Of a DNA stretch of 64,000 nucleotides, positions 24,546 through 52,897 are shown piece after piece; the stretch's first letter is position 1; each line of letters opens with the position of its first letter. Both the position numbers and the translations under genes were made by a program. The stretch lies in NCBI RefSeq assembly GCF_056746865.1, contig NZ_CM163382.1; one strand, 5' to 3'. The notes under the pieces were generated by a model. That model was not told the origin of the DNA. It made no database searches and was given only the letters and a program-made list of their open reading frames with translations.

Positions 24546-25739
24546 TTACTTGCTTTTGCAGCAGCGCCAGATAAATACAGTCACCATGCTAAATAATACA
24601 GCGGCAAATAATGCCATCACAATCAGTGCTATTGCGACACCTGTTTTCGACACCAATGGTACCAACAACGCGCAAAGCCCATAGCCAAGTGTGTGACTGC
24701 AAGCGAGCCAGCCCGCGCCTGCGCCGTCGGCCAGCTTATCATTCAGTAAAAGTTGATAAGCGGGGGTTGCCAGAGCAGCTCCAAATGACAGCACTGCACA
24801 GCCTAGGTAAAACAACCATAGCTGTTCAGCGAGCATGATAGCCAGACCACTACTCATCAACACCCCGGCACTCAGGAGCAGAGCCACTGGAGTCAGGCGC
24901 TGTGGACGGAGTACCACGAACTGCGCGATAAGCGCAGCTATTGCGGACAGCCCCAACAACCACGCTACCTGTTGGCTAATAGTGGTGGTATCAGTGGCGA
25001 ACTGGCGAGTAAGGGCTGGAGAAAGTCCAAGCTGCATCATGCTCATTGCCGCAGCCAGTAACATTGCGCAAAGCAGATAAGGCAGGAAATCCCGCTTCAG
25101 GCTGACGCTCTTGCGCTCCGGTGTGGGCTGTGGTGGTGTGCCGGGCAACCGCAGAAGCATCACCAGTGCCAGCGCTGGCGCTGCCATCAGCATCCACACT
25201 GGCGCCAGAGGGTGAATGACCAACATTGCCGCCGCGCACAGCGGCCCGAATAGCCTGCCGCAGCTCAGGCCGGAGCTGATGGTTGCCAGAGCGGCCATGC
25301 GATTCCCATCTCCCGCTCTCTGCAATGCCCAGACCTGACAGGCTGGCACCATTGCTGACACGGTCAGACCGTAGACGATCCGGGCGATGATTAATATTCC
25401 CAACCCCACCGCTTTTGTTACGGCACCGGTAGCCATCAGCACGCTTCCCAGCCCAAGCAGGGTAAAGCTTACGCCATATCCTCCCAGAGCCCACAGCACC
25501 ACAGTCTTACTGCCAGTAAGGGAAATTTGCTTTCCCCACCATGGGGAAGATGGCAGAAACAGCATTGAGCCCAGCATCAGCAGGGCAGCCCATACAGACA
25601 GACTCAGATTTGTCTGTATGACCAGAACAGGGAGTACAACCAGCAGACCGTTCTGTCCGATACCGAGAAGACCGGCACTGAACGCCAGTGGCCAGCAGGA
25701 CAGGGTTTTTTGGGGCGTATCTTCGATCTTAGATGACAT
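24546..25739 (-). CDS. shiF: MFS transporter ShiF (aerobactin-locus associated)
   Basis: 397-aa multi-TM ORF divergently placed upstream of iucA, as in known aerobactin loci. Confidence 0.8.
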   Translation of the reverse strand: MSSKIEDTPQKTLSCWPLAFSAGLLGIGQNGLLVVLPVLVIQTNLSLSVWAALLMLGSMLFLPSSPWWGKQISLTGSKTVVLWALGGYGVSFTLLGLGSVLMATGAVTKAVGLGILIIARIVYGLTVSAMVPACQVWALQRAGDGNRMAALATISSGLSCGRLFGPLCAAAMLVIHPLAPVWMLMAAPALALVMLLRLPGTPPQPTPERKSVSLKRDFLPYLLCAMLLAAAMSMMQLGLSPALTRQFATDTTTISQQVAWLLGLSAIAALIAQFVVLRPQRLTPVALLLSAGVLMSSGLAIMLAEQLWLFYLGCAVLSFGAALATPAYQLLLNDKLADGAGAGWLACSHTLGYGLCALLVPLVSKTGVAIALIVMALFAAVLFSMVTVFIWRCCKSK

Positions 25740-25813
25740 TGTAATGTTTCAACACCATGTATTAATTGTGTTTATTTGTAAAATTAATTTTTCTGACAAT
25801 AACATTTCTCATT

Positions 25814-25832
25814 GATAATGATAATCATTATT
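25814..25832 (+). promoter_or_regulatory. Fur box in the iucA promoter
   Basis: GATAATGATAATCATTATT matches the Fur consensus GATAATGATAATCATTATC at 18 of 19 positions, about 40 bp upstream of iucA. Confidence 0.85.
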
Positions 25833-25874
25833 GACATAATTGTTATTATTTTACTGTGTAGGAGCTGTTTGATT

Positions 25875-27599
25875 ATGATCCTGCCCTCTGAAAAATCCGC
25901 CACAGATGTGGCTGCGCAGTGCTTCCTGAATGCCTTGATTCGTGAAACCAAAGACTGGCAACTGGCGGAATACCCGCCAGACGAATTGATTATCCCGCTG
26001 GACGAACAGAAGTCGCTCCATTTCAGAGTGGCTTATTTCTCCCCAACCCAGCATCACTGCTTTGCATTTCCTGCTCATCTGGTCACGGCATCAGGCAGTT
26101 ATCCTGTCGATTTTACCACTCTCTCCCGGCTTATTATTGACAAGCTCCGGCATCAACTTTTTCTGCCAGTTCCCCTCTGCGAAACTTTCCACCAACGCGT
26201 GCTGGAAAGCTACGCCCATACGCAACAGACAATTGATGCCCGCCATGACTGGGCCATCCTGCGTGAGAAAGCGTTGAATTTTGGCGAGGCTGAGCAGGCA
26301 CTGCTGACAGGACACGCTTTCCACCCTGCACCTAAGTCTCATGAACCGTTTAACCGCCAGGAAGCTGAACGATACCTGCCTGACATGGCACCTCACTTCC
26401 CGCTGCGGTGGTTTTCGGTGGATAAAACGCAAATCGCTGGTGAAAGTCTGCATCTTAACCTTCAACAGCGGTTGACGCGATTTGCCGCAGAAAATGCGCC
26501 CCAGTTACTCAACGAATTAAGTGACAATCAATGGCTGTTCCCGCTGCACCCGTGGCAGGGAGAATATCTTTTGCAGCAGGTGTGGTGCCAGGCACTTTTT
26601 GCTAAAGGACTTATCAGAGACTTAGGCGAGGCCGGCACGTCGTGGCTGCCGACCACCTCTTCCCGCTCCCTCTACTGTGCTACCAGCCGCGATATGATCA
26701 AGTTCTCCCTGAGCGTTCGGCTGACCAACTCCGTCCGTACTCTGTCTGTGAAAGAGGTGGAGCGAGGAATGCGCCTGGCACGTCTGGCGCAAACCGACGG
26801 CTGGCAGATGCTACAGGCCCGCTTCCCTACTTTCCGGGTAATGCAGGAGGACGGCTGGGCCGGGCTGCGCGATCTTAACGGCAACATCATGCAGGAAAGT
26901 TTGTTTTCCCTGCGTGAAAACCTGCTGCTGGAGCAGCCGCAAAGCCAGACCAACGTTCTGGTTTCCCTGACTCAGGCCGCACCGGATGGCGGTGATTCGC
27001 TGCTGGTTTCGGCGGTAAAACGCCTGAGCGATCGCCTCGGTATCACTGTGCAACAGGCCGCCCACGCATGGGTCGATGCTTACTGTCAGCAGGTGCTGAA
27101 GCCTCTGTTTACGGCTGAAGCGGATTACGGCCTGGTGCTGCTGGCGCATCAGCAAAATATTCTTGTGCAGATGCTTGGGGATCTGCCGGTCGGATTTATT
27201 TACCGTGACTGCCAGGGCAGCGCGTTTATGCCTCACGCGACAGAGTGGCTCGATACCATTGACGAGGCGCAGGCGGAAAATATTTTCACCCGTGAGCAGT
27301 TGCTGCGCTATTTCCCTTATTACCTGCTGGTTAACTCCACTTTTGCCGTAACTGCTGCGCTGGGTGCTGCCGGGCTGGACAGCGAAGCGAATCTGATGGC
27401 TCGTGTACGAACATTGCTGGCTGAAGTGCGTGACCAGGTGACTCATAAAACCTGTCTCAACTATGTTCTGGAAAGTCCGTACTGGAACGTAAAAGGTAAC
27501 TTTTTCTGTTATCTGAACGATCATAACGAGAACACCATCGTTGACCCTTCGGTGATCTATTTTGATTTCGCTAACCCGCTGCAGGCTCAGGAGGTCTGA
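25875..27599 (+). CDS. iucA: Aerobactin synthetase IucA
   Basis: IucA/IucC-family protein; start at ATG 25875 with RBS ggag (the upstream in-frame extension is AT-rich leader). Confidence 0.9.
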   Translation: MILPSEKSATDVAAQCFLNALIRETKDWQLAEYPPDELIIPLDEQKSLHFRVAYFSPTQHHCFAFPAHLVTASGSYPVDFTTLSRLIIDKLRHQLFLPVPLCETFHQRVLESYAHTQQTIDARHDWAILREKALNFGEAEQALLTGHAFHPAPKSHEPFNRQEAERYLPDMAPHFPLRWFSVDKTQIAGESLHLNLQQRLTRFAAENAPQLLNELSDNQWLFPLHPWQGEYLLQQVWCQALFAKGLIRDLGEAGTSWLPTTSSRSLYCATSRDMIKFSLSVRLTNSVRTLSVKEVERGMRLARLAQTDGWQMLQARFPTFRVMQEDGWAGLRDLNGNIMQESLFSLRENLLLEQPQSQTNVLVSLTQAAPDGGDSLLVSAVKRLSDRLGITVQQAAHAWVDAYCQQVLKPLFTAEADYGLVLLAHQQNILVQMLGDLPVGFIYRDCQGSAFMPHATEWLDTIDEAQAENIFTREQLLRYFPYYLLVNSTFAVTAALGAAGLDSEANLMARVRTLLAEVRDQVTHKTCLNYVLESPYWNVKGNFFCYLNDHNENTIVDPSVIYFDFANPLQAQEV

Positions 27600-28547
27600 A
27601 TGTCTGGGGCAAACATTGTTCACAGCGGATATGGACTGCGCTGTGAAAAACTCGACAAGCCTCTGAATCTTGGCTGGGGGCTGGACAATAGCGCGGTGTT
27701 GCACTGGCCCGGGGAGCTGCCAACAGGATGGCTGTGCGACGCGCTGGATCAGATATTTATCGCCGCACCACAACTTTCAGCAGTGGTTCTTCCCTGGTCC
27801 GAATGGTGTGAGGAGCCACAGGCGCTGACGCTTTTCGGACAGGTACAAAGCGACATTATCCATCGTTCCGCTTTCTGGCAGTTACCGTTATGGCTGAGTT
27901 CTCCGGCAAACCGGGCCTCCGGTGAAATGGTTTTTGATGCAGAGCGTGAGATTTATTTCCCGCAGCGCCCCCCCCGTCCGCAGGGTGAAGTTTATCGTCG
28001 TTACGATCCACGCATTCGCAGGATGCTGAGTTTCCGCATTGCCGATCCCGTTTCTGATGCAGAACGTTTCACTCGCTGGATGAACGATCCGCGCGTTGAG
28101 TATTTCTGGGAGCAAAGTGGCTCACTGGAGGTACAGATCGCCTATCTGGAACGCCAGCTCACCAGTAAACATGCATTCCCGCTGATTGGTTGTTTCGACG
28201 ATCGGCCGTTCAGTTATTTCGAAATCTACTGGGCGGCGGAAGACCGCATTGGTCGCCACTATTCGTGGCAGCCCTTTGACCGTGGCCTGCATCTGCTGGT
28301 TGGTGAACAGCAATGGCGCGGAGCCCACTATGTGCAAAGCTGGCTGCGCGGGGTGACACATTACCTGCTGCTGAATGAGCCACGTACGCAGCGCACAGTA
28401 CTGGAGCCACGCACCGATAACCAGCGCCTGTTCCGCCATCTTGAGCCTGCGGGATACCGGACAATTAAAGAGTTCGACTTCCCACATAAACGCTCGCGCA
28501 TGGTGATGGCGGATCGTCATCACTTCTTCACGGAGGTCGGTCTGTAA
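27600..28547 (+). CDS. iucB: N6-hydroxylysine acetyltransferase IucB
   Basis: 315-aa ORF in canonical operon position. Confidence 0.9.
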   Translation: MSGANIVHSGYGLRCEKLDKPLNLGWGLDNSAVLHWPGELPTGWLCDALDQIFIAAPQLSAVVLPWSEWCEEPQALTLFGQVQSDIIHRSAFWQLPLWLSSPANRASGEMVFDAEREIYFPQRPPRPQGEVYRRYDPRIRRMLSFRIADPVSDAERFTRWMNDPRVEYFWEQSGSLEVQIAYLERQLTSKHAFPLIGCFDDRPFSYFEIYWAAEDRIGRHYSWQPFDRGLHLLVGEQQWRGAHYVQSWLRGVTHYLLLNEPRTQRTVLEPRTDNQRLFRHLEPAGYRTIKEFDFPHKRSRMVMADRHHFFTEVGL

Positions 28548-30289
28548 TGAATCACAAAGACTGGGATTTGGTCAACCGCCGCTTGGTGGCAAAAATGTTG
28601 TCTGAGCTGGAGTATGAGCAGGTTTTCCACGCGGAATCTCAGGGCGATGACCGCTACTGCATTAACCTGCCGGGAGCACAATGGCGCTTCATCGCTGAAC
28701 GTGGTATCTGGGGCTGGCTCTGGATTGATGCTCAAACTCTGCGCTGCGCGGACGAGCCAGTACTGGCTCAGACGCTGCTGATGCAGCTAAAGCAGGTACT
28801 GTCAATGAGCGATGCAACCGTTGCTGAGCATATGCAGGATTTGTATTCCACGCTGCTGGGCGACCTGCAACTGCTGAAAGCCCGTCGCGGGCTGAGCGCC
28901 AGTGACCTGATTAATCTTAGTGCCGACCGCCTGCAATGCCTGCTGAGCGGTCATCCTAAATTCGTTTTTAATAAAGGTCGCCGTGGCTGGGGTAAAGAGG
29001 CGCTGGAACGATATGCGCCAGAGTATGCCAACACCTTTAGACTGCACTGGCTGGCGGTAAAACGTGAACATATGATCTGGCGCTGTGATAACGAGATGGA
29101 TATTCATCAGTTGTTGACGGCCGCAATGGATCCGCAGGAGTTTGCCCGCTTCAGTCAGGTCTGGCAGGAAAACGGACTGGATCATAACTGGCTGCCGCTG
29201 CCTGTACATCCGTGGCAGTGGCAGCAAAAAATCGCCACCGACTTCATCGCTGATTTTGCCGAAGGCAGGATGGTGTCTCTCGGCGAGTTTGGCGACCAGT
29301 GGCTCGCCCAGCAGTCGCTGCGTACCCTGACCAACGCCAGTCGCCGGGGTGGGCTGGATATCAAGCTGCCGCTGACCATCTACAACACCTCATGCTACCG
29401 GGGGATTCCTGGCAGATACATCGCTGCCGGACCACTGGCTTCACGCTGGCTACAACAGGTTTTTGCGACCGACGCTACCCTGGTGCAAAGCGGTGCAGTG
29501 ATCCTTGGTGAACCGGCTGCAGGCTATGTCTCCCATGAAGGCTATGCCGCGCTTGCCCGGGCTCCCTATCGCTACCAGGAAATGCTTGGTGTTATCTGGC
29601 GGGAGAATCCGTGCCGCTGGCTGAAACCGGATGAAAGTCCGGTTCTGATGGCAACACTGATGGAGTGCGACGAAAACGATCAGCCGCTGGCAGGCGCATA
29701 TATAGACCGCTCCGGGCTGGACGCTGAAACCTGGCTTACGCAACTGTTCCGGGTGGTCGTGGTTCCTCTGTATCACCTGCTTTGCCGCTACGGTGTCGCG
29801 CTTATTGCACATGGACAAAATATAACGCTCGCCATGAAAAAGGGGGTTCCACAGCGTGTTCTGCTGAAAGACTTCCAGGGCGATATGCGGCTGGTGAAAG
29901 AAGAGTTCCCCGAAATGGACTCTTTGCCTCAGGAGGTTCGTGATGTTACATCCCGCCTGAGTGCGGACTACTTAATCCATGATTTGCAGACGGGTCACTT
30001 CGTGACAGTACTGCGTTTTATTTCGCCACTGATGGTTCGTCTTGGCGTACCTGAACGGCGATTTTATCAACTGCTGGCAGCAGTGTTGAGTGATTACATG
30101 AAAAAACATCCACAAATGTCAGAGCGTTTTGCGCTTTTCTCACTTTTCAGGCCACAAATCATTCGCGTGGTGCTGAACCCGGTAAAACTGACCTGGCCTG
30201 ATCTGGATGGCGGCAGCCGCATGCTGCCGAATTACCTTGAGGATCTGCAAAATCCGCTGTGGCTGGTAACTCAGGAATATGAATCATGA
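28547..30289 (+). CDS. iucC: Aerobactin synthetase IucC
   Basis: 580-aa IucA/IucC-family ORF; overlapping start/stop with neighbours. Confidence 0.9.
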   Translation: MNHKDWDLVNRRLVAKMLSELEYEQVFHAESQGDDRYCINLPGAQWRFIAERGIWGWLWIDAQTLRCADEPVLAQTLLMQLKQVLSMSDATVAEHMQDLYSTLLGDLQLLKARRGLSASDLINLSADRLQCLLSGHPKFVFNKGRRGWGKEALERYAPEYANTFRLHWLAVKREHMIWRCDNEMDIHQLLTAAMDPQEFARFSQVWQENGLDHNWLPLPVHPWQWQQKIATDFIADFAEGRMVSLGEFGDQWLAQQSLRTLTNASRRGGLDIKLPLTIYNTSCYRGIPGRYIAAGPLASRWLQQVFATDATLVQSGAVILGEPAAGYVSHEGYAALARAPYRYQEMLGVIWRENPCRWLKPDESPVLMATLMECDENDQPLAGAYIDRSGLDAETWLTQLFRVVVVPLYHLLCRYGVALIAHGQNITLAMKKGVPQRVLLKDFQGDMRLVKEEFPEMDSLPQEVRDVTSRLSADYLIHDLQTGHFVTVLRFISPLMVRLGVPERRFYQLLAAVLSDYMKKHPQMSERFALFSLFRPQIIRVVLNPVKLTWPDLDGGSRMLPNYLEDLQNPLWLVTQEYES

Positions 30290-31563
30290 AAAAAAGTGTC
30301 GATTTTATTGGTGTAGGGACAGGGCCATTTAATCTCAGCATTGCTGCGTTGTCACATCAGATCGAAGAACTGGACTGTCTCTTCTTTGATGAACATCCTC
30401 ATTTTTCCTGGCATCCGGGTATGCTGGTACCGGATTGTCATATGCAGACCGTCTTTCTGAAAGATCTGGTCAGTGCTGTTGCACCTACAAATCCCTACAG
30501 CTTTGTTAACTATCTGGTGAAGCACAAAAAGTTCTATCGCTTCCTTACAAGCAGACTACGTACAGTATCCCGTGAAGAGTTTTCTGACTACCTCCGCTGG
30601 GCTGCTGAAGATATGAATAACCTGTATTTCAGTCATACCGTTGAAAACATTGATTTCGATAAAAAACGTCGATTGTTTCTGGTGCAAACCAGCCGGGGAG
30701 AATATTTTGCCCACAATATCTGCCTTGGTACAGGAAAACAACCTTATTTACCACCCTGTGTGAAGCATATGACACAATCCTGTTTCCATGCCAGTGAAAT
30801 GAATCTTCGTCGGCCGGACCTTAGTGAAAAACGGGTAACCGTGGTTGGTGGAGGACAGAGTGGTGCAGACCTGTTCCTTAATGCATTACGCGGGGAATGG
30901 GGAGAAGCGGCGGAAATAAACTGGATCTCCCGGCGGAATAATTTTAACGCACTGGATGAGGCTGCTTTTGCTGATGAGTATTTTACACCTGAATATATTT
31001 CAGGCTTCTCCGGACTGGAGGAAGATATTCGCCATCAGTTACTGGATGAGCAGAAAATGACATCGGATGGCATCACTGCCGATTCTTTACTGACCATTTA
31101 TCGTGAGTTGTACCACCGTTTTGAAGTTCTGAGAAAACCAAGAAATATCCGTCTGCTACCCAGCCGCTCGGTAACAACTCTGGAAAGTAGTGGTCCTGGC
31201 TGGAAGTTGCTGATGGAGCATCATCTGGATCAGGGCAGGGAGAGCCTGGAAAGTGATGTGGTGATTTTCGCCACAGGTTACCGTTCTGCGTTGCCACAAA
31301 TACTTCCCTCACTGATGCCGCTGATCACCATGCACGATAAGAACACCTTTAAAGTGCGTGATGACTTCACTCTGGAATGGAGTGGCCCGAAAGAGAACAA
31401 CATCTTCGTGGTCAACGCCAGTATGCAAACCCATGGCATCGCCGAACCTCAGCTCAGCCTGATGGCATGGAGATCTGCACGTATTCTTAATCGTGTAATG
31501 GGACGTGATTTATTCGATCTCAGTATGCCGCCCGCCCTGATTCAGTGGCGCAGCGGCACCTAG
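30286..31563 (+). CDS. iucD: L-lysine N6-monooxygenase IucD
   Basis: 425-aa ORF with N-terminal FAD-binding motif GVGTGPFN. Confidence 0.9.
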   Translation: MKKSVDFIGVGTGPFNLSIAALSHQIEELDCLFFDEHPHFSWHPGMLVPDCHMQTVFLKDLVSAVAPTNPYSFVNYLVKHKKFYRFLTSRLRTVSREEFSDYLRWAAEDMNNLYFSHTVENIDFDKKRRLFLVQTSRGEYFAHNICLGTGKQPYLPPCVKHMTQSCFHASEMNLRRPDLSEKRVTVVGGGQSGADLFLNALRGEWGEAAEINWISRRNNFNALDEAAFADEYFTPEYISGFSGLEEDIRHQLLDEQKMTSDGITADSLLTIYRELYHRFEVLRKPRNIRLLPSRSVTTLESSGPGWKLLMEHHLDQGRESLESDVVIFATGYRSALPQILPSLMPLITMHDKNTFKVRDDFTLEWSGPKENNIFVVNASMQTHGIAEPQLSLMAWRSARILNRVMGRDLFDLSMPPALIQWRSGT

Positions 31564-31644
31564 GGAAAACGCAGCCGGAGGCTGCTTCTTTAACTCGCTA
31601 CACAGCATCTTTGGGCTGATTTTTTCCGCCCGTGTGGAGGAATA

Positions 31645-33846
31645 ATGATGATAAGCAAAAAGTATACGCTTTGGGCTCTCAACCCACTGCTTCTTACCAT
31701 GATGGCGCCAGCAGTCGCTCAACAAACCGATGATGAAACGTTCGTGGTGTCTGCCAACCGCAGCAATCGCACCGTAGCGGAGATGGCACAAACCACCTGG
31801 GTTATCGAAAACGCCGAACTGGAACAGCAGATTCAGGGCGGCAAAGAGCTTAAGGACGCACTGGCTCAGCTGATCCCTGGCCTTGACGTCAGCAGCCGGA
31901 GCCGCACCAACTACGGTATGAATGTGCGTGGCCGCCCGCTGGTCGTGCTGGTTGACGGCGTGCGTCTCAACTCTTCACGTACCGACAGCCGACAACTGGA
32001 CTCTATAGATCCTTTTAATATCGACCATATTGAAGTGATCTCCGGTGCGACGTCCCTGTATGGCGGCGGCAGTACCGGTGGCCTGATCAACATCGTGAGC
32101 AAAAAAGGCCAGCCGGAAACCATGAAGGAGTTTGAGGCTGGCACCAAAAGTGGCTTTAGCAGCAGTAAAGATCACGATGAACGCATTGCCGGAGCTGTCT
32201 CCGGCGGAAATGAGCATATCTCCGGACGTCTTTCCGTGGCATATCAGAAATTTGGCGGCTGGTTTGACGGTAACGGCGATGCCACCCTGCTTGATAACAC
32301 CCAGACCGGCCTGCAGTACTCCGATCGGCTGGACATCATGGGAACTGGAACGTTGAACATCGATGAATCCCGGCAGCTTCAGTTGATCACACAGTACTAT
32401 AAAAGCCAGGGCGACGACGATTACGGGCTTAATCTCGGGAAAGGCTTCTCTGCCATCAGAGGGACCAGCACGCCCTTCGTCAGTAACGGGCTGAATTCCG
32501 ACCGTATTCCCGGCACTGAGCGGCATTTGATCAGCCTGCAGTACTCTGACAGCGCTTTCCTGGGACAGGAGCTGGTCGGTCAGGTTTACTACCGCGATGA
32601 GTCGTTGCGATTCTACCCGTTCCCGACGGTAAATGCGAACAAACAGGTGACGGCTTTCTCTTCGTCACAGCAGGACACCGACCAGTACGGCATGAAACTG
32701 ACTCTGAACAGCAAACCGATGGACGGCTGGCAAATCACCTGGGGGCTGGATGCTGATCATGAGCGCTTTACCTCCAACCAGATGTTCTTCGACCTGGCTC
32801 AGGCAAGCGCTTCCGGAGGGCTGAACAACAAGAAGATTTACACCACCGGGCGCTATCCGTCGTATGACATCACCAACCTGGCGGTCTTCCTGCAATCAGG
32901 CTATGACATCAATAATCTCTTTACCCTCAACGGTGGCGTACGCTATCAGTACACTGAAAACAAGATTGATGATTTCATCGGCTACGCGCAGCAACGGCAG
33001 ATTGCCGCCGGGAAGGCTATATCCGCCGACGCCATTCCTGGCGGCTCAGTCGATTACGACAACTTCCTGTTCAACGCTGGTCTGCTGATGCATATCACCG
33101 AACGCCAGCAGGCATGGCTCAACTTCTCCCAGGGCGTGGAGCTGCCGGACCCGGGTAAATACTATGGTCGCGGCATCTATGGTGCTGCAGTGAACGGCCA
33201 TCTTCCTCTAACAAAGAGTGTGAACGTCAGCGACAGCAAGCTGGAAGGCGTGAAAGTCGATTCTTATGAGCTGGGCTGGCGCTTTACTGGCAATAATCTG
33301 CGCACCCAAATCGCGGCCTACTATTCGATTTCTGATAAGAGCGTGGTGGCGAATAAAGATCTGACCATCAGTGTGGTGGACGACAAACGCCGTATTTACG
33401 GCGTGGAAGGTGCGGTGGACTACCTGATTCCTGATACTGACTGGAGTACCGGAGTGAACTTCAACGTGCTGAAAACTGAGTCGAAAGTGAACGGTACCTG
33501 GCAGAAATACGATGTGAAGACAGCAAGCCCATCAAAAGCGACAGCCTACATTGGCTGGGCACCGGACCCGTGGAGTCTGCGAGTGCAGAGCACCACCTCC
33601 TTTGACGTGAGCGACGCGCAGGGCTACAAGGTCGATGGCTATACCATCGTCGATTTGCTTGGCAGTTATCAGCTTCCGGTGGGTACACTCAGCTTCAGCA
33701 TTGAAAACCTCTTCGACCGTGACTACACCACTGTCTGGGGGCAGCGTGCGCCACTGTACTACAGCCCGGGTTACGGCCCTGCTTCACTGTACGGCTACAA
33801 AGGCAGGGGCCGCACCTTTGGTCTGAGTTACTCAGTATTATTCTGA
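31645..33846 (+). CDS. iutA: Ferric aerobactin TonB-dependent outer-membrane receptor IutA
   Basis: 733-aa ORF, signal peptide, TonB-dependent receptor features, C-terminal aromatic residue; operon context. Confidence 0.9.
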   Translation: MMISKKYTLWALNPLLLTMMAPAVAQQTDDETFVVSANRSNRTVAEMAQTTWVIENAELEQQIQGGKELKDALAQLIPGLDVSSRSRTNYGMNVRGRPLVVLVDGVRLNSSRTDSRQLDSIDPFNIDHIEVISGATSLYGGGSTGGLINIVSKKGQPETMKEFEAGTKSGFSSSKDHDERIAGAVSGGNEHISGRLSVAYQKFGGWFDGNGDATLLDNTQTGLQYSDRLDIMGTGTLNIDESRQLQLITQYYKSQGDDDYGLNLGKGFSAIRGTSTPFVSNGLNSDRIPGTERHLISLQYSDSAFLGQELVGQVYYRDESLRFYPFPTVNANKQVTAFSSSQQDTDQYGMKLTLNSKPMDGWQITWGLDADHERFTSNQMFFDLAQASASGGLNNKKIYTTGRYPSYDITNLAVFLQSGYDINNLFTLNGGVRYQYTENKIDDFIGYAQQRQIAAGKAISADAIPGGSVDYDNFLFNAGLLMHITERQQAWLNFSQGVELPDPGKYYGRGIYGAAVNGHLPLTKSVNVSDSKLEGVKVDSYELGWRFTGNNLRTQIAAYYSISDKSVVANKDLTISVVDDKRRIYGVEGAVDYLIPDTDWSTGVNFNVLKTESKVNGTWQKYDVKTASPSKATAYIGWAPDPWSLRVQSTTSFDVSDAQGYKVDGYTIVDLLGSYQLPVGTLSFSIENLFDRDYTTVWGQRAPLYYSPGYGPASLYGYKGRGRTFGLSYSVLF

Positions 33847-36435: not shown

Positions 36436-37314
36436 CTACAGATGTTGCTCTCTGGTTGTTGTACTAGTCGGGAGATCCTGTGGATCGACATTTTCCTTCG
36501 CGTGAGCATTGATGCTGGAAGCGGTAAACGTCAGGATGAATACAACCGTGAATAAGATAACAATCGTTGGTGCTGGTGCGCTGTCTATAAAAAAGGAGAG
36601 CCATACACCAGTCATTGAGACCATTACCGATATACCGAGCGCCAGCAGGAGCGCAATATGAAAGCGTTGCGTCAGGAGTACCGCAATGGCGCCAGGCGCA
36701 ATGAGCAGAGAAATGGAGAGAATGATACCTACCGCTTTCAGCGTCGCCACAATGGTCAGAGAGACCATGCACAGCAGCCCATAATGCAGCCATCTCGTAT
36801 GCAAACCGCTTACCTGCGCCTGTTGATAATCAAAGCTGAACAGCAAAAAATCCCGCCATTTTACGCTAATAACAAGTGTAACCAGCCCGGCAATAATCAC
36901 CGTCTGGATTATATCGCCGATGGTTACCCCGAGCATGTCGCCGAAAAGAATATGGTCAAGATGTACGTCGGGTTTGACTGCAATATACAAGATCAGACCT
37001 GCGGCAAACATGCCAGAAAAAACAATCCCCATCACTGTATCTTGCTTGATTCGGCTGTTGTCTTTCAGGTATCCCGTCGCCACCGCGCAGAATACTCCGG
37101 CGACGAATGCTCCTCCCGCCAGAGGAAAACCCAGTATCCACGCAAGCACGATACCAGGAAAAACCGCATGACTCATCGCGTCTCCCATCAGTGCCCAACC
37201 TTTCAGGACCAGAAAGACCGACAGCAGCGCACAGGGTATGGAAACTACCAGTGAAATCAGCAGTGCGTGACTCATAAAGGTGAACTGCAGTGGCTCCAGT
37301 AATAATGCCATCAT
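36436..37314 (-). CDS. sitD: Mn/Fe ABC transporter permease SitD
   Basis: Multi-TM permease, last gene of sitABCD. Confidence 0.85.
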   Translation of the reverse strand: MMALLLEPLQFTFMSHALLISLVVSIPCALLSVFLVLKGWALMGDAMSHAVFPGIVLAWILGFPLAGGAFVAGVFCAVATGYLKDNSRIKQDTVMGIVFSGMFAAGLILYIAVKPDVHLDHILFGDMLGVTIGDIIQTVIIAGLVTLVISVKWRDFLLFSFDYQQAQVSGLHTRWLHYGLLCMVSLTIVATLKAVGIILSISLLIAPGAIAVLLTQRFHIALLLALGISVMVSMTGVWLSFFIDSAPAPTIVILFTVVFILTFTASSINAHAKENVDPQDLPTSTTTREQHL

Positions 37315-38168
37315 GAGCGATCCTCCAGCACCTTATGCGCACGCTGACGATTTGCCAAAAGCCCATGGGTGGGTGCAAAGACAAATGCTAAAAGAAACAG
37401 CAGTGTCTGCGCCACCACGATGATTCCACCTGTCGCTCCGTCCAGAAAGTAACTGACCCACGCGCCGAGGAAACTGGTTACACTGCCAATAGTTACAGCA
37501 ATCACGAGCAGGCGGGGAAAACGATCGGTTAACAACCATGCTGTTGCGCCAGGGGTCACTACCAGACAGATCACCAGAAAAGCCCCAACCGTTTGCAATG
37601 CTGCAACGGTCGATACCGCCAGCAGTGTGAAGAAGAGGATTTTTAATCTTCCTGGATATAATCCAATAGCACGGGCGTGATTTTCGTCGAAAAAGGTCAC
37701 CATAAGATCTTTCCATTTGAAAAAGAGCACTATGACTGAGACAATGCCAATGATAGTGAGTTGCAGGATATCCGCCGGAGCGATTGCCAGAATATTGCCC
37801 AGGACGATGGTCTGAATATTTACGGATGTCGGGTTTAATGACACCATAAACAGCCCCAGGCCAAAAAAGGACGAGAAGATCAGGCCGATGATGGCATCTT
37901 CTTTTAAGCGAGTGCGTTGGTTAAGAAACAGCATGCTGCCCGCAGCCAGTCCACCGGAAAAGAAGGCCCCCAGAGAAAACGGAAGCCCCAGCATATATGC
38001 CCCCGCAACACCCGGGACGATAGAGTGCGACAGCGCATCGCCAATCAGCGACCAGCCTTTTAGCATCAGATAGCATGACAGGAAAGCGCAGAGACCGCCG
38101 ACCATCGCCGCGACCCACATCGCATTGAGCATATATTCATAGCTGAAGGGTTCCAGTAGCACGTTCAT
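37311..38168 (-). CDS. sitC: Mn/Fe ABC transporter permease SitC
   Basis: 285-aa multi-TM permease; overlapping stops/starts. Confidence 0.85.
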
Positions 38169-38992
38169 CTTTCTTCCCTCTGCACCGCTGATGGTCGATA
38201 AGCCACAAAGGGGCGTTCATCGTCAGTAATAATGCTTTCTTCCGAGCCTTTAAGTGTGACATGGCGTAGTACGCCGCTAAAAGCCAGCTCCAGGTTCTCG
38301 GCTGTAAAAGTGGTGTCTGTCGGCCCGCTTGCCAGGACGGTGCCTTTGACCATGACCGTATAATCGCAAAATGTCGTGACGGATCCGAGATTGTGCGTTG
38401 AGACAAGCATCGTTTTGCCTTCCGCGCGTAACTCCCTCAACAGGCTGATGATTTTGGCTTCGGTTTTCACATCAACGCCGGTAAAAGGTTCATCCAGCAG
38501 GATCACATCACCCTGCTGTGCAATCGCTCTCGCCAGAAAGACGCGTTTCTTTTGTCCACCGGAAAGCTCGCCGATTTGTCGATGGCGAAAATCTACCATA
38601 TCGACACGTTCCAGCGCATCGGTGACAACCTGACGATCCCTCTTATTGGCTATACGCAACATACCCATATGCCCATAGCGGCCCATCATCACCACATCTT
38701 CCACCAGTACAGGAAAGGACCAGTCCACTTCTTCTGACTGCGGGACGTAGGCAATCAGGTTTTTCTGCAGAGCCTGCCGCGTGGGAATACCCAGAACAGA
38801 TATCTTTCCGGTAGTCAGACGCACGAATCCCATAATCGCTTTAAATAACGTCGATTTTCCGGAACCGTTTACCCCAACCAGAGCGGCAATAGATCCGCCT
38901 GGTACTGTGAAGGATGCATCGCGCAGTGCTGTGTGCCCGTTACGCCAGGTGACAGTAACGCCATTAACGACAATACCCGCAGATTGCATCAT
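38165..38992 (-). CDS. sitB: Mn/Fe ABC transporter ATP-binding protein SitB
   Basis: Walker [10 protein letters not shown] and ABC signature LSGGQKKRV. Confidence 0.9.
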
Positions 38993-39906
38993 TACTTCTC
39001 CCTTTTCCCGGCTTTAATTCCCTGCACCAGCGTACTGGTAGTAACCTTCAGAAGGTCGATATACGTAGGTACCGGGCCGTTTTCTGTGCTCAGGGAATCG
39101 ACATAGAGCACACCGCCGTAGTGTGCGCCGGTTTCACGCGCAACCTGACGCGCTGGTTTATCGGAAACCGTACTCTCACTAAATACCGCTGGGATATTAT
39201 TTTTCTTCACTATATCAACCACTTTACGTACCTGCTGGGGTGTTCCTTGTTGATCGGCATTTATCGGCCACAGATAAAGCTCTTTTAGCCCCAAATCGCG
39301 TGCGAGATAAGAAAAAGCCCCTTCACTGGTGACCATCCATCTTTTATTCTCAGGGAGTTCAGCAATCTGCTTACGCAGGGGGGCAAGGGTTTGGGTAATC
39401 TTGGCTTTATAAGTATCGGCATTACGTTGGTATGTTTTTGCATTTGCCGGATCGTATTTTATCAACGCATCACGAATATTATCGACGTAAATCAAAGCAT
39501 TATCTGGTGACATCCAGGCATGAGGGTTAGGTTTTCCCTCGTAGGGGCCTTCGGTGATCCCTACTGGCGTCACACCCGAAGAGACAATCACTTCTGGAAC
39601 ACCATTGAGATGCTGGTAAAAGCGCTGGAACCACAATTCCAGATTCATTCCATTGGCGAGAATCAGTTGTGCCCCCTGCGCACGTTTAATATCGCCAGGG
39701 GTAGGCTGATACTCATGAATTTCCGCACCGGGCTTGGTTATGGATGAGACTTCTGCAACATCTCCAGCCACGTTTTTGGCCATATCTGCGATGATGGTAA
39801 ATGTTGTAATGACCTTGAATTTTTCAGTTGCACTCGCCTGAAATGCGATCGAGCAGGTGAGGGCGAGGAACCCCAAGAGCATGGTTAATTTTTTTATTGA
39901 GTGCAT
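38992..39906 (-). CDS. sitA: Mn/Fe ABC transporter periplasmic binding protein SitA
   Basis: 304-aa ORF with signal peptide; first gene of the operon. Confidence 0.9.
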
Positions 39907-42409: not shown

Positions 42410-43010
42410 GTACAGGCTCAATGCCGGCGCTGGTATTGTAGAAATCAATCCTGCCCCTGATGTCGGAGATACTCTCGTTAACCTTCCTGATTGTATCCTC
42501 TGCTCAGTCAATGGGTTGCCAATGGGGGCACCCTTTCCTGACTGATTCGTCATTTCATTCTTATTGTATGTTACTGGCATTACACCAGTGCTGGCATACT
42601 TTCCTGCGTGTCTGCACCGGTTTGACAAAATTCAACAGGGATAAAATAGTGCAGGAAACTGAAGCATTACTTGCAGAGCCGGGAGACATCCGGCGTTTTA
42701 TTCAACAGGCAGTGGATCACTGGCCGCATTTTCTGATTGTCCACTTCACACACAATTCGACAGAAGGAAACATCAACGGACAACAGATTCATGCATTCTG
42801 AACTTCCTTTTATGAACGTATTACTGAACGTAATCACACTGACAGTCCATCCTCGCCGGTGGTATTACGCTGGTTGCGTGAACAACATGAAGGAACAACA
42901 ATACCTGTTGCTGCTCAGCCATGTGGTGGCATGCAGCGGCACTTTAAGCAGCACAGGGCACTTTGAACTGCTCCGGGAATCCTGGAGACTAAACTCCCTG
43001 AGAAAGAGGT
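42410..43010 (+). pseudogene. Degenerate paralog of the alpA-downstream gene (13600-14304), frameshifted
   Basis: DNA and peptide similarity (DIRRFIQQAVDHWP, HFT...TEGNINGQQIHAF, LPFMNVLL, RRWYYAGC) with frame changes. Confidence 0.5.
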
Positions 43011-43267
43011 AAACAGGATGAGTATGATTCACAATTGGGGTAATTTGTTCCATTGCCTCAAATGCTGGCTGTACGCCACAGACTCTGCGTGTCTGGGTTA
43101 GCCAGTATGAGCGGGATACAGGGGCGCTTCACACATAACATTCCTTCTAATTTGCATAATTAATTACACTGATAGTCACATTCAATAACTATCATAAGCT
43201 ATCATCTGGCTGACTGTTATTTCGCAACAGTTATTGAGTAAATCTTTAACCTGTTAACAGAGGGTTT

Positions 43268-43792
43268 ATGAAACGTAAACTTATTGCCTTTGTGATTCTG
43301 GCTACATCATCCTGTGGATATGCAGCCACCAAAGATGTAACAATGAATCTTGTTGATAGTGACGGAAAAGAGCGAAATATTGGTAAAATAACCATCCAGA
43401 AGACACCCTACGGGCTGCTGTTCACCCCTGATCTTCACTCCTTACCCGCCGGCATTCATGGTTTTCATGTACATGAAAACGCAAGTTGTGCTCCTGCCCT
43501 GAAAGATGGAAAAACTGTCGCTGCTTTATCTGCAGGTGGTCACTTTGACCCGGAAAAAACAGGGAAGCATCTCGGTCCATGGTCTCCTGATGGCCACCTA
43601 GGTGATCTCCCTGCGCTTTATGTCACTCATGACGGAAAAGCAACCTACCCGGTGCTTGCGCCAAGACTATCTGAATTAAAGGAGCTCGATGGCCGTTCGC
43701 TAATGCTCCACGCAGGAGGTGATAATCATGATGACCATCCTGAACCTCTAGGTGGCGGTGGTGCAAGAATTGCCTGTGGTATCATCCCATAA
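43268..43792 (+). CDS. sodC: Periplasmic Cu,Zn superoxide dismutase SodC
   Basis: Signal peptide plus Cu/Zn-binding histidine cluster (GFHVHE, GGHFDP) and C-terminal [12 protein letters not shown]. Confidence 0.85.
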
Positions 43793-43920
43793 TCAATCAG
43801 GTAAGGGATATCCTCCCTTACCCTTAATCTTCCCTGGCGGCATGTGCATATCTTTCAGTTACTGTGAGATACCTGTATTACGGTGTCTTTTTAGCTCACA
43901 GAAATATCAGACAGCCCGTT

Positions 43921-44145
43921 TCAGTGTTTTATTACCTTAATCTTTTTACGGCATTCTTCAGCTCTTGCGCATGCTATTTTTTCACCTGTTTCATAACATT
44001 GCTGGCAGCCTAATCCAAATTTCATCGCCATATCATAACCTTCCCGAAAACCTCGGAACCACGCGTTACGAAGGTATTCATCATATTCCCCGTAGTCAAT
44101 AATAACCATTTTATTTTCATGGGATTTTCCGGTATTCTCACTCAT
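43921..44145 (-). CDS. Small hypothetical protein, 74 aa, Cys-containing
   Basis: ATG at 44143-44145 preceded by RBS gaggt; sequence MSENTGKSHENKMVIIDYGEYDEYLRNAWFRGFREGYDMAMKFGLGCQQCYETGEKIACARAEECRKKIKVIKH; no family recognised. Confidence 0.4.
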   Translation of the reverse strand: MSENTGKSHENKMVIIDYGEYDEYLRNAWFRGFREGYDMAMKFGLGCQQCYETGEKIACARAEECRKKIKVIKH

Positions 44146-44959
44146 TTTCGATACCTCAATGCTTACAACAGAAAAGTATACTTTTACGAAGTTCGCCTTT
44201 GCAGGACTATATAAAGTTATCACTGGATGCAAGAGCCGGAAATCATGTATATCAGGATCAACTTTGTAATTCAATAACATATTATCCAGTGAAAAAGTAA
44301 GTATATTTAAGCTGGGGAAGGAGAAGGGGGACTTAATTTGATATTTTCATCAATAATATTATTTTACCTCCTCCATTATTCATTCAGGCCTGGTTCCGGG
44401 CGTAATTCCGATTTCTCTGTTGAAGCGATGCATTTATATTTAAATATTCACCTGTCATTGAATTTTATTTGAAATAGGAGAAAATCTCCTCCTGTACTAC
44501 AGATAACCCGGAATGTTCCTCGAAAGAAAATTCTGGCGCAGAATTCACGCCCGGTTCTGTTCAACATCATGCAGGATAACGATACCGAAACGTTAAACTC
44601 TGGCAATTCTCGTGTTATACACAGGCAGGAGTGATTACTACGGTAAGAATTGCTGAAAAGGGGAGAACACTGAAGGCCTTATTCGCGAAGAATAAAGGAG
44701 ACATTTCATGTAAATTATTATCAGAGATAACCTTCTCCAGGCGCTTTTGTTCGCTTCCTGAATTGCTACCTGATACATATTTACGGGATGCCAGCCTGGT
44801 GACTATAACTCCGAAAAGACCGATTATTGTATTGCGTGCATCCGGCATGTTTACAATGTACGCTGGTATCTAACGGAGTCTGACACAGATGCACGCAGGT
44901 GTATATTTTAACGTAATTATCCGGAAGGAACAGTATATTTTAATGCGGGAGTTGCATGA

Positions 44960-45734
<775 letters not shown>

Positions 45735-45740
45735 CTAGCT

Positions 45741-45777
<37 letters not shown>

Positions 45778-46149
45778 TAATTACACTGTGGGTTGACGCC
45801 GGAAGAATCAGAGAACAGATACCGTTCTTACTGTAAAACGTGGCTAATATTAATTGAGCACTGCAGTGTTCAGAGCACAAAGAAGAAAAAAGATGTGTGC
45901 GAATGCCTGTAATGTGTTAAAAGAATGTTCCGCGTTTCCGGTACGCTTTTCGTAACTAACAATGCAGGGTGACGTAACGCTGGTTGTGCCGGAAACGCGT
46001 CCCTCCCCCTATCTTTCCTGTTTGGATTTGCCCCTATATTTCTGGATTATCCGACAAAACCGGCGTGAAGTATTACTCTCGTCGCCCAGCACCATAAGGA
46101 TAACGCCCATAAAATCATGAAACTTTTCTTCCAGATTGGATACAATCAG

Positions 46150-46482
46150 GCCGTATCCCGTATTACAGGCTTATCACGTGTGACAGTCAGTCTCTGGGTG
46201 TGTTCAGGAACATTCCCTGAAATGTCAACCCGGCCTCCAGAGCGAGGACTTCTGGCCCCATGGAGGGAGTGGTTAAAAGAGCAACGAGAAAGTGGTAACT
46301 TCGGCGCGTGGCTGCAAGGATGGCAGCTGATGCTGCGGCTATATGTGAGGCAATCGGCAGTCGCTGGAATAATGGGGGTTGTCGAAAGTCATGTAAATAG
46401 ACTAAAAATGCTGAAAGGCCAGATGTATGGTCGAGCCGGATTTGAACTACTCAGACAGAGGGTCATGAGTCCACTGGCATGA
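46150..46482 (+). pseudogene. Duplicate of the ISL3-like transposase C-terminal fragment seen at 23102-23446
   Basis: Identical peptide ...SRITGLSRVTVSLWVCSGTFPEMSTRPPERG...VNRLKMLKGQMYGRAGFELLRQRVMSPLA. Confidence 0.5.
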
Positions 46483-46690: not shown

Positions 46691-47143
46691 TTATGTTGTT
46701 GGCACTACAGATGAATGATGGGATGATATTTTCCAATCCTTTCCATCCCACTCATAAGCGAAACTATAGCGTGCTGAAACTTGTTTTTTATCTTCAAAAG
46801 TAAACGTGTAATTCCCTGTATCAAGAGCCATATTGCATCCAATGCGAATAGTTCTGAAGTTTATTTCTCCAACAGGTTTTTTTTTCAAAAAATGCTCAAA
46901 ATAGTCAACTCTTTCTGCATCTGTAATCCTAATTTTTTTTGATACTGTGGGCAGTAAGATCGCATCACTTAAATAGTTATCAGCAACCTTCTTGGCATCA
47001 CCTGTTTTTAATGATTCATTCCAGCGATCGAATAACCTTTCAATGTCTTTACTATCTACCCGAATACACTTAACATTATCTACGTCACTTGCCCACGACG
47101 CTCCAGAAAACAGACACAGAATTAAAATATTTATTTTTTTCAT
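46691..47143 (-). CDS. Secreted hypothetical protein, possibly NTF2/SnoaL-like fold; AT-rich gene
   Basis: Signal peptide MKKINILILCLFSGASWA; 150 aa; fold guess is from general sequence character only. Confidence 0.4.
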   Translation of the reverse strand: MKKINILILCLFSGASWASDVDNVKCIRVDSKDIERLFDRWNESLKTGDAKKVADNYLSDAILLPTVSKKIRITDAERVDYFEHFLKKKPVGEINFRTIRIGCNMALDTGNYTFTFEDKKQVSARYSFAYEWDGKDWKISSHHSSVVPTT

Positions 47144-50809: not shown

Positions 50810-52897
50810 TCAGAACTGATAGTTCAGCGACATCCAGTAATTTCTCTCAGGTATCACATAACCCGTTGTCGATGCCCCCGTCTGGAAGTAATCACCCGCA
50901 TAAAGCGTACCACTGCCGGCACGATACAGACTTACGTCACTGTAATCCTTGTTAAGCACATTATTCACCGCTGCATTCAGCATCAGTGCATCCGTCACTT
51001 TCCACGACATGCCCGCATCCAGTACCGTCCAGGCTTTCAGATATTCACCTTTCTCATCATACACTTTCTTCTGTACAGCTGAGAGTGACGAATAATTCTG
51101 GGTGAAACGTGGCGTTTTCCCGCGGTAACGGGCACCCAGCCATGATGTCACCTCTTCAGTAATCTGCCAGTTCAGTTTCGCATTCACCATATGCTCAGGG
51201 GTGTAACTCAGTGGTGCACCTTTATTATCCCCATCCCGTTGTTCACTCTGCGTCCAGGTATAATTCAGAGACAGAGTCACATCCTCTGACAACAGAGGCA
51301 GTGTGCCGGCAAATTCCACGCCCTGAGTCCTAGCCTTTCCGCTGTTTGTGTAGCTGCGGGTATTATCATCAATGGAATAAGATACGATCTTGTTGGAGAA
51401 TTCTGTCATAAAGCCCGTGATATTGGCGTTCAGACCGGCATGATTATCGTAATACACGCCCGCTTCATAACTGACACTCTCCTCCGGCTTCAGGTCCGGG
51501 TTACCGAGAAGATTCGTACGCCCCTGACCGGACACACCGCTGATCCCCTTATGTAACTGCCCCATGCTGGGCGCCTTATATCCCGTGGTCACCCCACCTT
51601 TCAGCGTCCACGCATCAGTCACATCCCAGACCATATATGCCCGGGGACTGAAGTGTCCTCCGAACACCTCATAGCGTTCATAGCGGCTACCCGCAGTCAG
51701 TGCAAATGCATCCGTGATATACCACTCATCCTCAACAAATGCCGACCAGCTTTTCTGACGGAAGGTTTCACCAGTACTGGCGAGAACAACCCCGTCTTTC
51801 ATGGAGGAGTTCTGATACTCACCACCGACGGTAACCTTGTGTGATTCCCCCAGAGGTGCAAACAGTAATGAGCTCAGGATAAGATTCGACTCCTTAAGCT
51901 CCCTCGGCTGGCCGGCAAGCCCCCATTTATCACGCTGCAGTACGCTACGTACAAGCTGACGGCCTTTATTTTCCGTCTCATTCCAGTTCAGAGATGACTT
52001 CCAGGCTCCGAAGGTGAATGTATGATCATAGCCTGCTGAAATTTTATTACGCTCATAGCGCAGGGTGCGATCATAACCGCCCGTCAGACTGCCCAGCTGG
52101 CCATCTCGGTTATCATAACGCTGCCGGGCGATATCCATATCAATCCAGAGTACATCCTTGTCCGTCGCTTTCCAGTCAAGACGACCACCTGCATTATAAT
52201 TCTGTGATTCCGTGGGATAAGGGATACGCGTAGCTGAGGTGTCGCTCAGTGATGTGACCGATGAGCCCTGACGCTGCTGTGTGCTGCCACGTACCTGAAG
52301 GCTGAGTGAATCATCCACAAGGGGACCGCTGCTCCAGAAATTAAACTGGCTGCTGTTCCCCCATTTGTTACTTTCCTGCAGGTTCAGCCCGGCATTAACC
52401 GAAGAGCGCCATTTGTCTGCATTCTTTTTGGTGATGATATTCACCACGCCCCCCATGGCATCAGAGCCGTACAGAGTGGACATGGGGCCCCTGATAATCT
52501 CAATACGTTCGATGGCGGCCAGAGGTGGCATAAAACCCGTATTCATGGCAGCATAACCGTTTGGGGTTACGTCACTGCTCCCGCCCTGACGGACACCATC
52601 GATCAGTATCAGCGTATAACTGGCAGGCATTCCGCGGATGCTGATTTCGAGCCCACCTGTTTTACCCGTACCGCTTTCAACATCCACCCCCTCTACGGAT
52701 CTCAGTGCCTCCCCCAGATCATGATACTGGCTGGATCGCAAATCCTCCTGGCTGATCACTGAAACACTCGCAGCTGCACTGGTTAATTTTTTTTCATAGC
52801 CAGACGCCGTGACTACCATCACATCTTCCGCAGCCATACTGCTGACTGAAAACCCGAGACAAGGGATGGCTACTGAAGCCAGAGTGGTTACTCGCAT
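50810..52897 (-). CDS. iha: TonB-dependent outer-membrane receptor/adhesin, Iha-like (IrgA homolog adhesin)
   Basis: 695-aa ORF, signal peptide, plug and barrel features, C-terminal ...WMSLNYQF; close resemblance by memory to Iha; RBS ggagag. Confidence 0.75.
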   Translation of the reverse strand: MRVTTLASVAIPCLGFSVSSMAAEDVMVVTASGYEKKLTSAAASVSVISQEDLRSSQYHDLGEALRSVEGVDVESGTGKTGGLEISIRGMPASYTLILIDGVRQGGSSDVTPNGYAAMNTGFMPPLAAIERIEIIRGPMSTLYGSDAMGGVVNIITKKNADKWRSSVNAGLNLQESNKWGNSSQFNFWSSGPLVDDSLSLQVRGSTQQRQGSSVTSLSDTSATRIPYPTESQNYNAGGRLDWKATDKDVLWIDMDIARQRYDNRDGQLGSLTGGYDRTLRYERNKISAGYDHTFTFGAWKSSLNWNETENKGRQLVRSVLQRDKWGLAGQPRELKESNLILSSLLFAPLGESHKVTVGGEYQNSSMKDGVVLASTGETFRQKSWSAFVEDEWYITDAFALTAGSRYERYEVFGGHFSPRAYMVWDVTDAWTLKGGVTTGYKAPSMGQLHKGISGVSGQGRTNLLGNPDLKPEESVSYEAGVYYDNHAGLNANITGFMTEFSNKIVSYSIDDNTRSYTNSGKARTQGVEFAGTLPLLSEDVTLSLNYTWTQSEQRDGDNKGAPLSYTPEHMVNAKLNWQITEEVTSWLGARYRGKTPRFTQNYSSLSAVQKKVYDEKGEYLKAWTVLDAGMSWKVTDALMLNAAVNNVLNKDYSDVSLYRAGSGTLYAGDYFQTGASTTGYVIPERNYWMSLNYQF

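Follow-up and report, generated by a model that had tools for sequence, protein, structure and literature searches.

The window, by which the whole 64,000-nt stretch of DNA that was analysed is meant, carries on its minus strand an ORF that runs from an ATG at 44145–44143 to a TGA at 43923–43921 and encodes a product of 74 amino acids with four cysteines (MSENTGKSHENKMVIIDYGEYDEYLRNAWFRGFREGYDMAMKFGLGCQQCYETGEKIACARAEECRKKIKVIKH). This ORF is convergent with sodC, with 128 nt separating the two stop codons, and is preceded by a Shine-Dalgarno sequence, GAGGT (Table 1). Position, length, the presence of cysteines and GAGGT are exactly as given in the preliminary description of this DNA; the convergence with sodC and the AT-rich surroundings which it had reported were confirmed as well (39–40% G+C, namely 38.7% for the ORF and 40.1% for the stretch 43793–45070, against 48.9% for the whole window). 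The same CDS is called by PGAP as WP_001470144.1. The exact 74-aa sequence is present on at least 996 contigs and in UniProt as A0A0X5F841 ("Uncharacterized protein"), and the existence of the gene is thus already on record as hypothetical, while no paper in the literature mentions the protein accessions. The neighbouring gene was identified as sodC by matches to PF00080 (Sod_Cu, E = 6e-32) and to the NCBIfam SodC equivalog NF007628 (218 bits, cut-off 165). The SodC proteins nearest to it among species representatives, those of Serratia, Limnobaculum and Pseudomonas, are just ~66% identical to the SodC of this island, which is distinct from the K-12-type gene.

The surrounding DNA is a mosaic island of the ExPEC/APEC type, with features at 24546–33846, 36436–39906, 46691–47143 and 50810–52897. 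Its content includes iucABCD-iutA (with a 397-aa ORF upstream), sitABCD, an oxidoreductase of the SgcJ/EcaC family, ICE remnants and iha, and these genes are separated by many decayed IS elements (IS1, IS3, IS110, IS256, IS630 and IS66). Between the 5′ flank of the small gene and an IS3 remnant lies an unannotated stretch of ~760 bp (44312–45070) without a counterpart in Klebsiella, which holds only overlapping ORFs of 77–80 aa on both strands (44615–44873). At the edge of the IS3-family remnant a sub-threshold Rfam match to the Hfq-binding sRNA isrC was also noted (45062–45144, plus strand; 30.8 bits against a gathering threshold of 39, E = 7e-4).

Table 1. Features of the sodC region, with positions in the window
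Feature	Position	Strand	Remarks
Larger module in E. coli: sodC with the small gene and IS3 remnants	42963..46153		Recurs in unrelated chromosomal contexts
Conserved 5′ flank of sodC	43132..43267 (136 nt)	plus	Shares 87% identity with Klebsiella; the common block has its left edge here
sodC, periplasmic Cu,Zn superoxide dismutase	43268..43792	plus	Constant neighbour of the small gene
G+C-rich hairpin between the convergent genes	43799..43823	both	Terminator-like; stem of 10 pairs (minus) or 9 pairs (plus)
Compound stem-loop, intergenic	43859..43904		Inner hairpin GAGATACC..GGTGTCTTTTT followed by a T-run
Small-protein CDS	43921..44145	minus	74 aa + TGA; RefSeq WP_001470144.1, "hypothetical protein"
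Conserved 5′ flank of the small gene	44146..44311 (166 nt)	minus	Shares 80% identity with Klebsiella, up to the limit of homology at 44311
Shine-Dalgarno GAGGT	44153..44157	minus	7 nt before the ATG; read from the sequence
Perfect 14-bp palindrome AAAAGTATACTTTT	44172..44185		Within a 24-nt block that does not differ between E. coli and Klebsiella
Candidate promoter	44246..44274	minus	By eye: −35 TTGAAT (44274–44269), 17-nt spacer, extended −10 TGaTATACA (44254–44246)

When the stretch 43793–45070 was subjected to 1000 dinucleotide shuffles, an ATG-initiated ORF of at least 74 aa was obtained in 32% of them, falling to 3.6% where an SD-like tetramer was also required. Since about a third of the shuffles reach the same length, ORF length alone is no evidence of a gene, and the case for a real gene therefore rests on the comparison with other genomes. 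This comparison also bears on the start codon. Several GenBank and Logan calls (EMD03552.1 and P0001 being examples) give a 119-aa version initiated at an upstream ATG (window 43921–44280, minus strand). In Klebsiella this upstream extension is disrupted by a 1-nt indel at ~44201, and GAGGT is retained there (the copy in the third lineage described below has AAGG, 8 nt upstream), so that the ATG at 44145 is taken as the conserved start. The 119-aa reading is rejected on account of the frame-breaking indel, and the longer GenBank versions are probably mis-starts.

Relatives of the protein were sought with phmmer among 1.84 billion representatives and with word-indexed searches among 5.8 billion proteins, and a family of three lineages emerged, namely E. 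coli, one Klebsiella and one metagenomic lineage. Among 5426 complete E. coli genomes, 124–125 carry the gene (~2%), all at least 99% identical, and many of the carriers are poultry or human extra-intestinal isolates. Strains ECCNB12-2, EC6563 and SEPT362 are examples of carriers. Scanning of contigs with a family profile gave no match in one-per-species representatives of 100,044 species and none in the viral contigs of IMG/VR, while the JGI metagenome contigs yielded E. coli-type copies only. A match of the query core to P0009, a 382-aa protein with a seven-fold tandem repeat (E = 2e-6), runs via a repeated C..C....YETG-like segment and was treated as spurious, being of low complexity and 24% identity.

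On a Klebsiella pneumoniae contig (L002/L003), a 74-aa homologue with 81% amino acid identity is encoded, and there too it is convergent with sodC. The DNA homology between the window and this contig spans 43132 to 44311 and stops at both ends, the flanks being unrelated. Within it the identity amounts to 88.6% for sodC and to 85.8%, free of gaps, for the ORF; the intergenic spacer and the 5′ flank of the ORF are 76 and 80% identical, with one indel in each. Synonymous divergence is about equal in the two genes (dS 0.43 for the ORF and 0.46 for sodC). The 32 substitutions in the ORF, which include no indels, correspond to a dN/dS of 0.24 (0.15 over codons 25–74), with synonymous changes enriched (Fisher p = 1.8e-4); 14 or fewer amino acid changes resulted in just 0.09% of simulations in which 32 substitutions were placed at random. 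Each of the other five frames contains 1–13 stops in both the E. coli and the Klebsiella sequence.

Of all the searches, only the exhaustive phmmer scan picked up the third homologue (P0008, 75 aa), a Kluyvera-like copy on the metagenomic contig L004. Its identity amounts to 55% over the whole protein and to ~70% within the core (residues 18–66). Synonymous sites are saturated in this comparison (pS 0.91), with a pN of 0.25 that falls to 0.15 in the core, which is the signature of long-term purifying selection on the protein. Neither indels nor stops occur in the small ORF across the three lineages, and no Rfam family overlaps it. By this comparative evidence the 74-codon ORF is a true gene for a small protein. 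The conserved start and Shine-Dalgarno sequence and the PGAP annotation agree with the purifying selection, which bears out the preliminary description of the ORF as a well-initiated real small gene; the check on conservation which that description had proposed found the ORF to be kept across homologous regions.

A chance ORF in AT-rich, IS-scarred DNA, its conservation reflecting recent transfer or a non-coding element, is regarded as very improbable. Such a reading can point to the frequency of equally long ORFs in shuffles of the region, to the near identity of all E. coli copies (at least 99%) and to the three E. coli polymorphisms seen (E10K, Y18C and E20D), which are all non-synonymous and all located in the variable N-terminus. 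However, it does not sit well with the dN/dS of 0.24 (p ~2e-4), with the retention of ~70% of core residues despite saturated synonymous sites, with three lineages free of indels and stops beside five other frames that carry 1–13 stops, with the conserved Shine-Dalgarno sequence and lack of Rfam overlap, or with the core pLDDT of ~97 that AlphaFold2 reached from just four sequences. On these comparisons it is largely refuted.

The stretch common to E. coli and Klebsiella (43132–44311) comprises exactly sodC and the small gene. Between the two convergent genes, the G+C-rich hairpin is nearly unchanged in Klebsiella. The inner hairpin of the second stem-loop, GAGATACC..GGTGTCTTTTT with its T-run, looks like a plus-strand terminator for sodC; Klebsiella has a hairpin at the equivalent of 43859–43904 as well, with different bases. 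In all three lineages a mobile sodC is located no more than 1 kb from the small gene, and in the 80 nearest species-representative sodC loci no relative of the small gene was found within 3 kb. Comparison of the three lineages shows that the small gene has been co-inherited and has co-diverged with the mobile sodC as a two-gene cassette. The cassette measures ~1.2 kb: each of the two genes brings its own 5′ flank, the terminator hairpins are shared, and IS elements have moved the unit between chromosomal islands and plasmids of Enterobacteriaceae.

Within E. coli, the larger module of Table 1 adjoins sitABCD/iuc-iutA in the window and in a second locus (L001), and dptFG in two others (L010 and L099). 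The Klebsiella copy adjoins a FecCD-type ABC transporter. In two loci (L010 and L018) an IS5 insertion at the equivalent of 43935–43940 supplants the small gene's last four codons, so that the product is the 78-aa WP_029392418.1; the cassette with this IS5-altered copy lies beside dptF/dptG (Dnd-type restriction) and not beside sit/iuc. The IncF plasmids found in E. albertii and E. coli (L006/L007, equivalent to 43204–44016) carry an intact sodC together with a small gene that an IS3 has cut at window position 44016, removing its first 42 codons. Since these plasmids keep an intact sodC with an IS3-cut small gene, sodC does not need the small gene. It should also be noted that the IncF plasmid copies are located near an autotransporter gene and genes for plasmid replication and maintenance.

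In the metagenomic lineage (L004/L005) the order of genes is sodC (minus), an IS3 fragment, the small gene (plus) and katG (plus). Despite the rearrangement and the IS3 fragment, sodC and the small gene remain within 752 bp of each other in L004, and the order is that which a circular permutation or a tandem copy of the convergent pair would give. The katG gene (L004, 2070–4348) encodes a protein 90% identical to Kluyvera KatG. Homology to a Kluyvera chromosome is limited to katG and 107 nt upstream of it, the usual neighbours metF, eamA and gldA (normal context metF-eamA-katG-gldA) are absent, and the end of the contig resembles Enterobacter and Kosakonia plasmids. Because katG is out of its normal context and the contig end is plasmid-like, this locus is a mosaic, probably mobile and seemingly plasmid-borne cluster, in which the small gene stands between the genes of two antioxidant enzymes. 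A glutaredoxin-like reading of an 83-aa ORF downstream of katG found no support.

A four-sequence alignment was used for structure prediction with AlphaFold2, which gave a mean pLDDT of 79, a pTM of 0.63 and a pLDDT of ~97 over residues 30–60. The predicted fold is a two-helix hairpin, with helices at residues 18–42 and 47–73 joined by a turn at F43–G46, preceded by an N-terminus (about residues 1–17) that is predicted to be disordered, over residues 1–13 in the model, and is fast-evolving. The model puts a CxxC motif (C47, C50) where helix 2 begins, within its first turn and immediately behind the hairpin turn. C47, C50 and C65, the last also on helix 2, are invariant in all three lineages, and C59 is replaced by Tyr in the third. 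Other invariant residues are Y21-D22, R26, A28-W29, R31-G-F-R-E-G-Y37 and M39-A40 on the helix-1 side, and F43-G-L45, C47-Q-Q-C50, E52-T-G-E-K56, A58, A60-R-A62 and C65 in the turn and helix 2. As the core is ~70% identical anyway, the conservation of the three cysteines is statistically uninformative. The residues G54, A58, A62, C47, C50 and C65 follow a periodicity of 3.6 residues and so lie, judging from sequence and predicted secondary structure, on one face of helix 2, which presumably packs against the aromatic face of helix 1. A dimer modelled with an artificial linker from the same four-sequence alignment was weak (pTM 0.52, helix pLDDT falling to ~85, the five models ranging from 35 to 61); its sole predicted beta-bridge joins residues 46 and 145 (= 46′), the G46 of each copy, such that the two CxxC-bearing turns touch in this model. 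The protein has neither a signal peptide nor a hydrophobic segment and is presumably cytoplasmic.

The preliminary description had recognised no family, and this held: no match was obtained in Pfam, NCBIfam, PHROG or PADLOC, or in the PDB by sequence profile at E up to 10, and a PDB fold comparison of the predicted structure gave no specific match. The L004 homologue alone matches DUF7574 (PF24459), with 15.1 bits (E = 0.023), below the gathering threshold of 27 bits; the other three members do not match. Hha/YmoA was rejected, with no Pfam match and an hhalign probability of 0.08% against Hha. The cysteine motifs of ZAS proteins (H-x3-C-x2-C) and Wbl proteins (C-xn-C-x2-C-x5-C) are not fitted by the spacing C-x2-C-x8-C-x5-C found here, and residue 43 is Phe and not His. 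The CHCH twin-Cx9C proteins (Cox17-like) require two Cx9C motifs, one per helix, and two inter-helix disulfides, whereas the small protein has its Cys 47, 50, 59 and 65 together on helix 2, with Tyr in place of C59 in the third lineage. The only surviving resemblance, an architectural one, is to the zinc hook of Rad50, in which the apex of a hairpin of antiparallel helices bears a CxxC and two hooks share one Zn. The sequence of helix, tight turn, CxxC and helix is reproduced in the AlphaFold model, that is, in a prediction; the Rad50 hook differs in forming one part of a coiled-coil protein of great length without sequence relationship to the small protein, which has in addition an invariant third Cys 15 residues further on.

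The preliminary description had put forward an immunity, regulatory or stress-related role. Of these, immunity was not borne out: the conserved block contains no toxin, bacteriocin or partner ORF, and PADLOC and PHROG gave no match. A toxin-antitoxin or immunity pair was likewise rejected, as the block 43132–44311 has only sodC and the ORF, and the upstream ORF is frame-broken in Klebsiella. The stress-related role is supported in so far as context goes, namely by the co-divergence with mobile sodC in three lineages and the displaced katG in one of them. A regulatory role is conceivable.

With regard to regulation, the sole exact copy of the palindrome AAAAGTATACTTTT in the window is that upstream of the small gene, where it could possibly serve as an operator or 5′ UTR element. 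The candidate promoter further upstream, from which transcription would start at ~44239, was not called by a consensus promoter scan, its −10 lacking the final T, and its blocks are conserved in Klebsiella (TATAAA there). Fur-box-like matches of 13/19 occur upstream of sodC (43171–43189) and upstream of the small gene (44241–44259, overlapping the candidate −10); these are marginal, a score of 13/19 being reached by 5% of random 171-nt windows. The cassette with these boxes is located among iron-uptake genes. A shared operator for both genes was rejected, as AAAAGTATACTTTT is absent upstream of sodC, the best match there having three mismatches and lying inside the sodC CDS.

That the small protein is a DNA-binding (auto)regulator of the cassette, sensing metal or redox state in the manner of CsoR, RcnR or FurA and acting at AAAAGTATACTTTT, is considered improbable. 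The identical 24-nt block with its palindrome, 27 nt upstream of the ATG, and the three invariant Arg on helix 1 would suit such a regulator, and mycobacteria offer a precedent in furA-katG, where katG is preceded by the gene of a small regulator. With CsoR/RcnR/FrmR and with ZAS proteins of the RsrA type the protein has in common that it is small, all-helical and cytoplasmic, with conserved Cys near a helix N-terminus, and is encoded beside stress genes. However, the palindrome was not seen in L004 and does not precede sodC, and two-helix hairpins are not among the folds recognised as binding DNA. No DNA-binding Pfam family was matched, PF02583 (CsoR/RcnR/FrmR) included; hhalign gave a probability of 0.05% against RcnR, and the CsoR/RcnR/FrmR protomer has three helices with Cys/His W-X-Y-Z ligands, where the model of the small protein has two helices.

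It is proposed, tentatively and at somewhat less than even likelihood, that the small protein is a cysteine-dependent accessory of the mobile antioxidant cassette. In this proposal it would act in the cytoplasm through its cysteines, as a switch that responds to thiol redox state or to metal (Zn/Cu), and might dimerise tip-to-tip in zinc-hook fashion. The near-invariant surface LRNAWFRGFREGY / QQCYETGEK would bind a cellular partner, and this binding would tune the expression or the metal supply of the neighbouring enzymes. We infer every step of this function, and none of the sequence and fold matches supports any specific mechanism. Because SodC is periplasmic and the small protein has no signal peptide, any link between the two must be indirect. 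The Salmonella SodCII is reportedly supplied with copper by a route of CueP together with CopA/GolT, and as an accessory factor helping a periplasmic Cu,Zn-SOD to acquire metal, CueP would be a conceptual parallel; it is, however, larger, periplasmic and unrelated in sequence. A more specific form of the proposal would make the protein the first of a new family of ~70-aa "hook" micro-proteins, dimerised by metal or disulfide at the CxxC tip and forming a metal or redox switch in the cytoplasm for an acquired periplasmic Cu,Zn-SOD (and KatG) cassette that would gate copper/zinc supply or enzyme expression during the host oxidative burst; this form is thought unlikely.

The main rival, rated just as likely at a little under an even chance, is a real gene functionally unrelated to SodC. 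The small gene would then be hitchhiking orphan cargo of the mobile element, its product binding some host target, for instance the ribosome, a nucleoid protein, RNA polymerase or a function connected with phages or plasmids, and it would adjoin sodC only because genes 128 bp apart are copied together; the adjacency in three lineages could be simple inheritance of one 1.2-kb piece. Hitchhiking is consistent with convergent genes that are not in an operon, with products in different compartments, with truncated copies coexisting with intact sodC on IncF plasmids, with the absence of the family from the 80 other sodC loci and the 100,044 species-representative genomes, and with the uninformative conservation of the three cysteines. 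It also finds some encouragement in a weak local resemblance of RNAWFRGFREG to RSQWLGGWREA of RMF (R-x-x-W-x-x-G-[FW]-R-E), both being basic two-helix proteins of 55–75 aa. This likeness was rejected as a family assignment: no member matches RMF/CrpP (PF04957) in Pfam or NCBIfam even at E up to 10, hhalign against K-12 RMF gave a probability of 8% over 13 aligned columns only, RMF is absent among the PDB fold matches listed, and the motif lies in helix 2 of RMF but in helix 1 of the small protein. What argues against hitchhiking and for the proposed accessory role is that both genes have remained together, intact and selected, even where synonymous divergence is saturated and a rearrangement has left an IS fragment between them, and that the third context adds a second antioxidant gene, the displaced katG.

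In a loose sense the small protein is another lineage-restricted small cargo protein, and no specific family membership is claimed for it. What is new is the evidence that the gene is real, its correct start codon, the fold prediction and the cysteine triad, together with the definition of the cassette of sodC and the small gene and of its mobility. The present result is a modest one, in that a "hypothetical protein" becomes an evolutionarily validated gene with three invariant cysteines to mutate, and it offers a respectable, if not surprising, lead for those working on small proteins or on metal and redox biology. In Salmonella and E. coli O157, additional sodC genes gained by horizontal transfer are recognised as contributing to virulence or fitness, and the sodC variant described here is located in ExPEC/APEC islands with aerobactin, sit and iha as well as on IncF plasmids. 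Should the small protein be a dedicated partner of this cassette, it would provide a new handle on the regulation or metallation of acquired periplasmic SODs and would add a characterised member to the poorly explored small proteins of bacteria.
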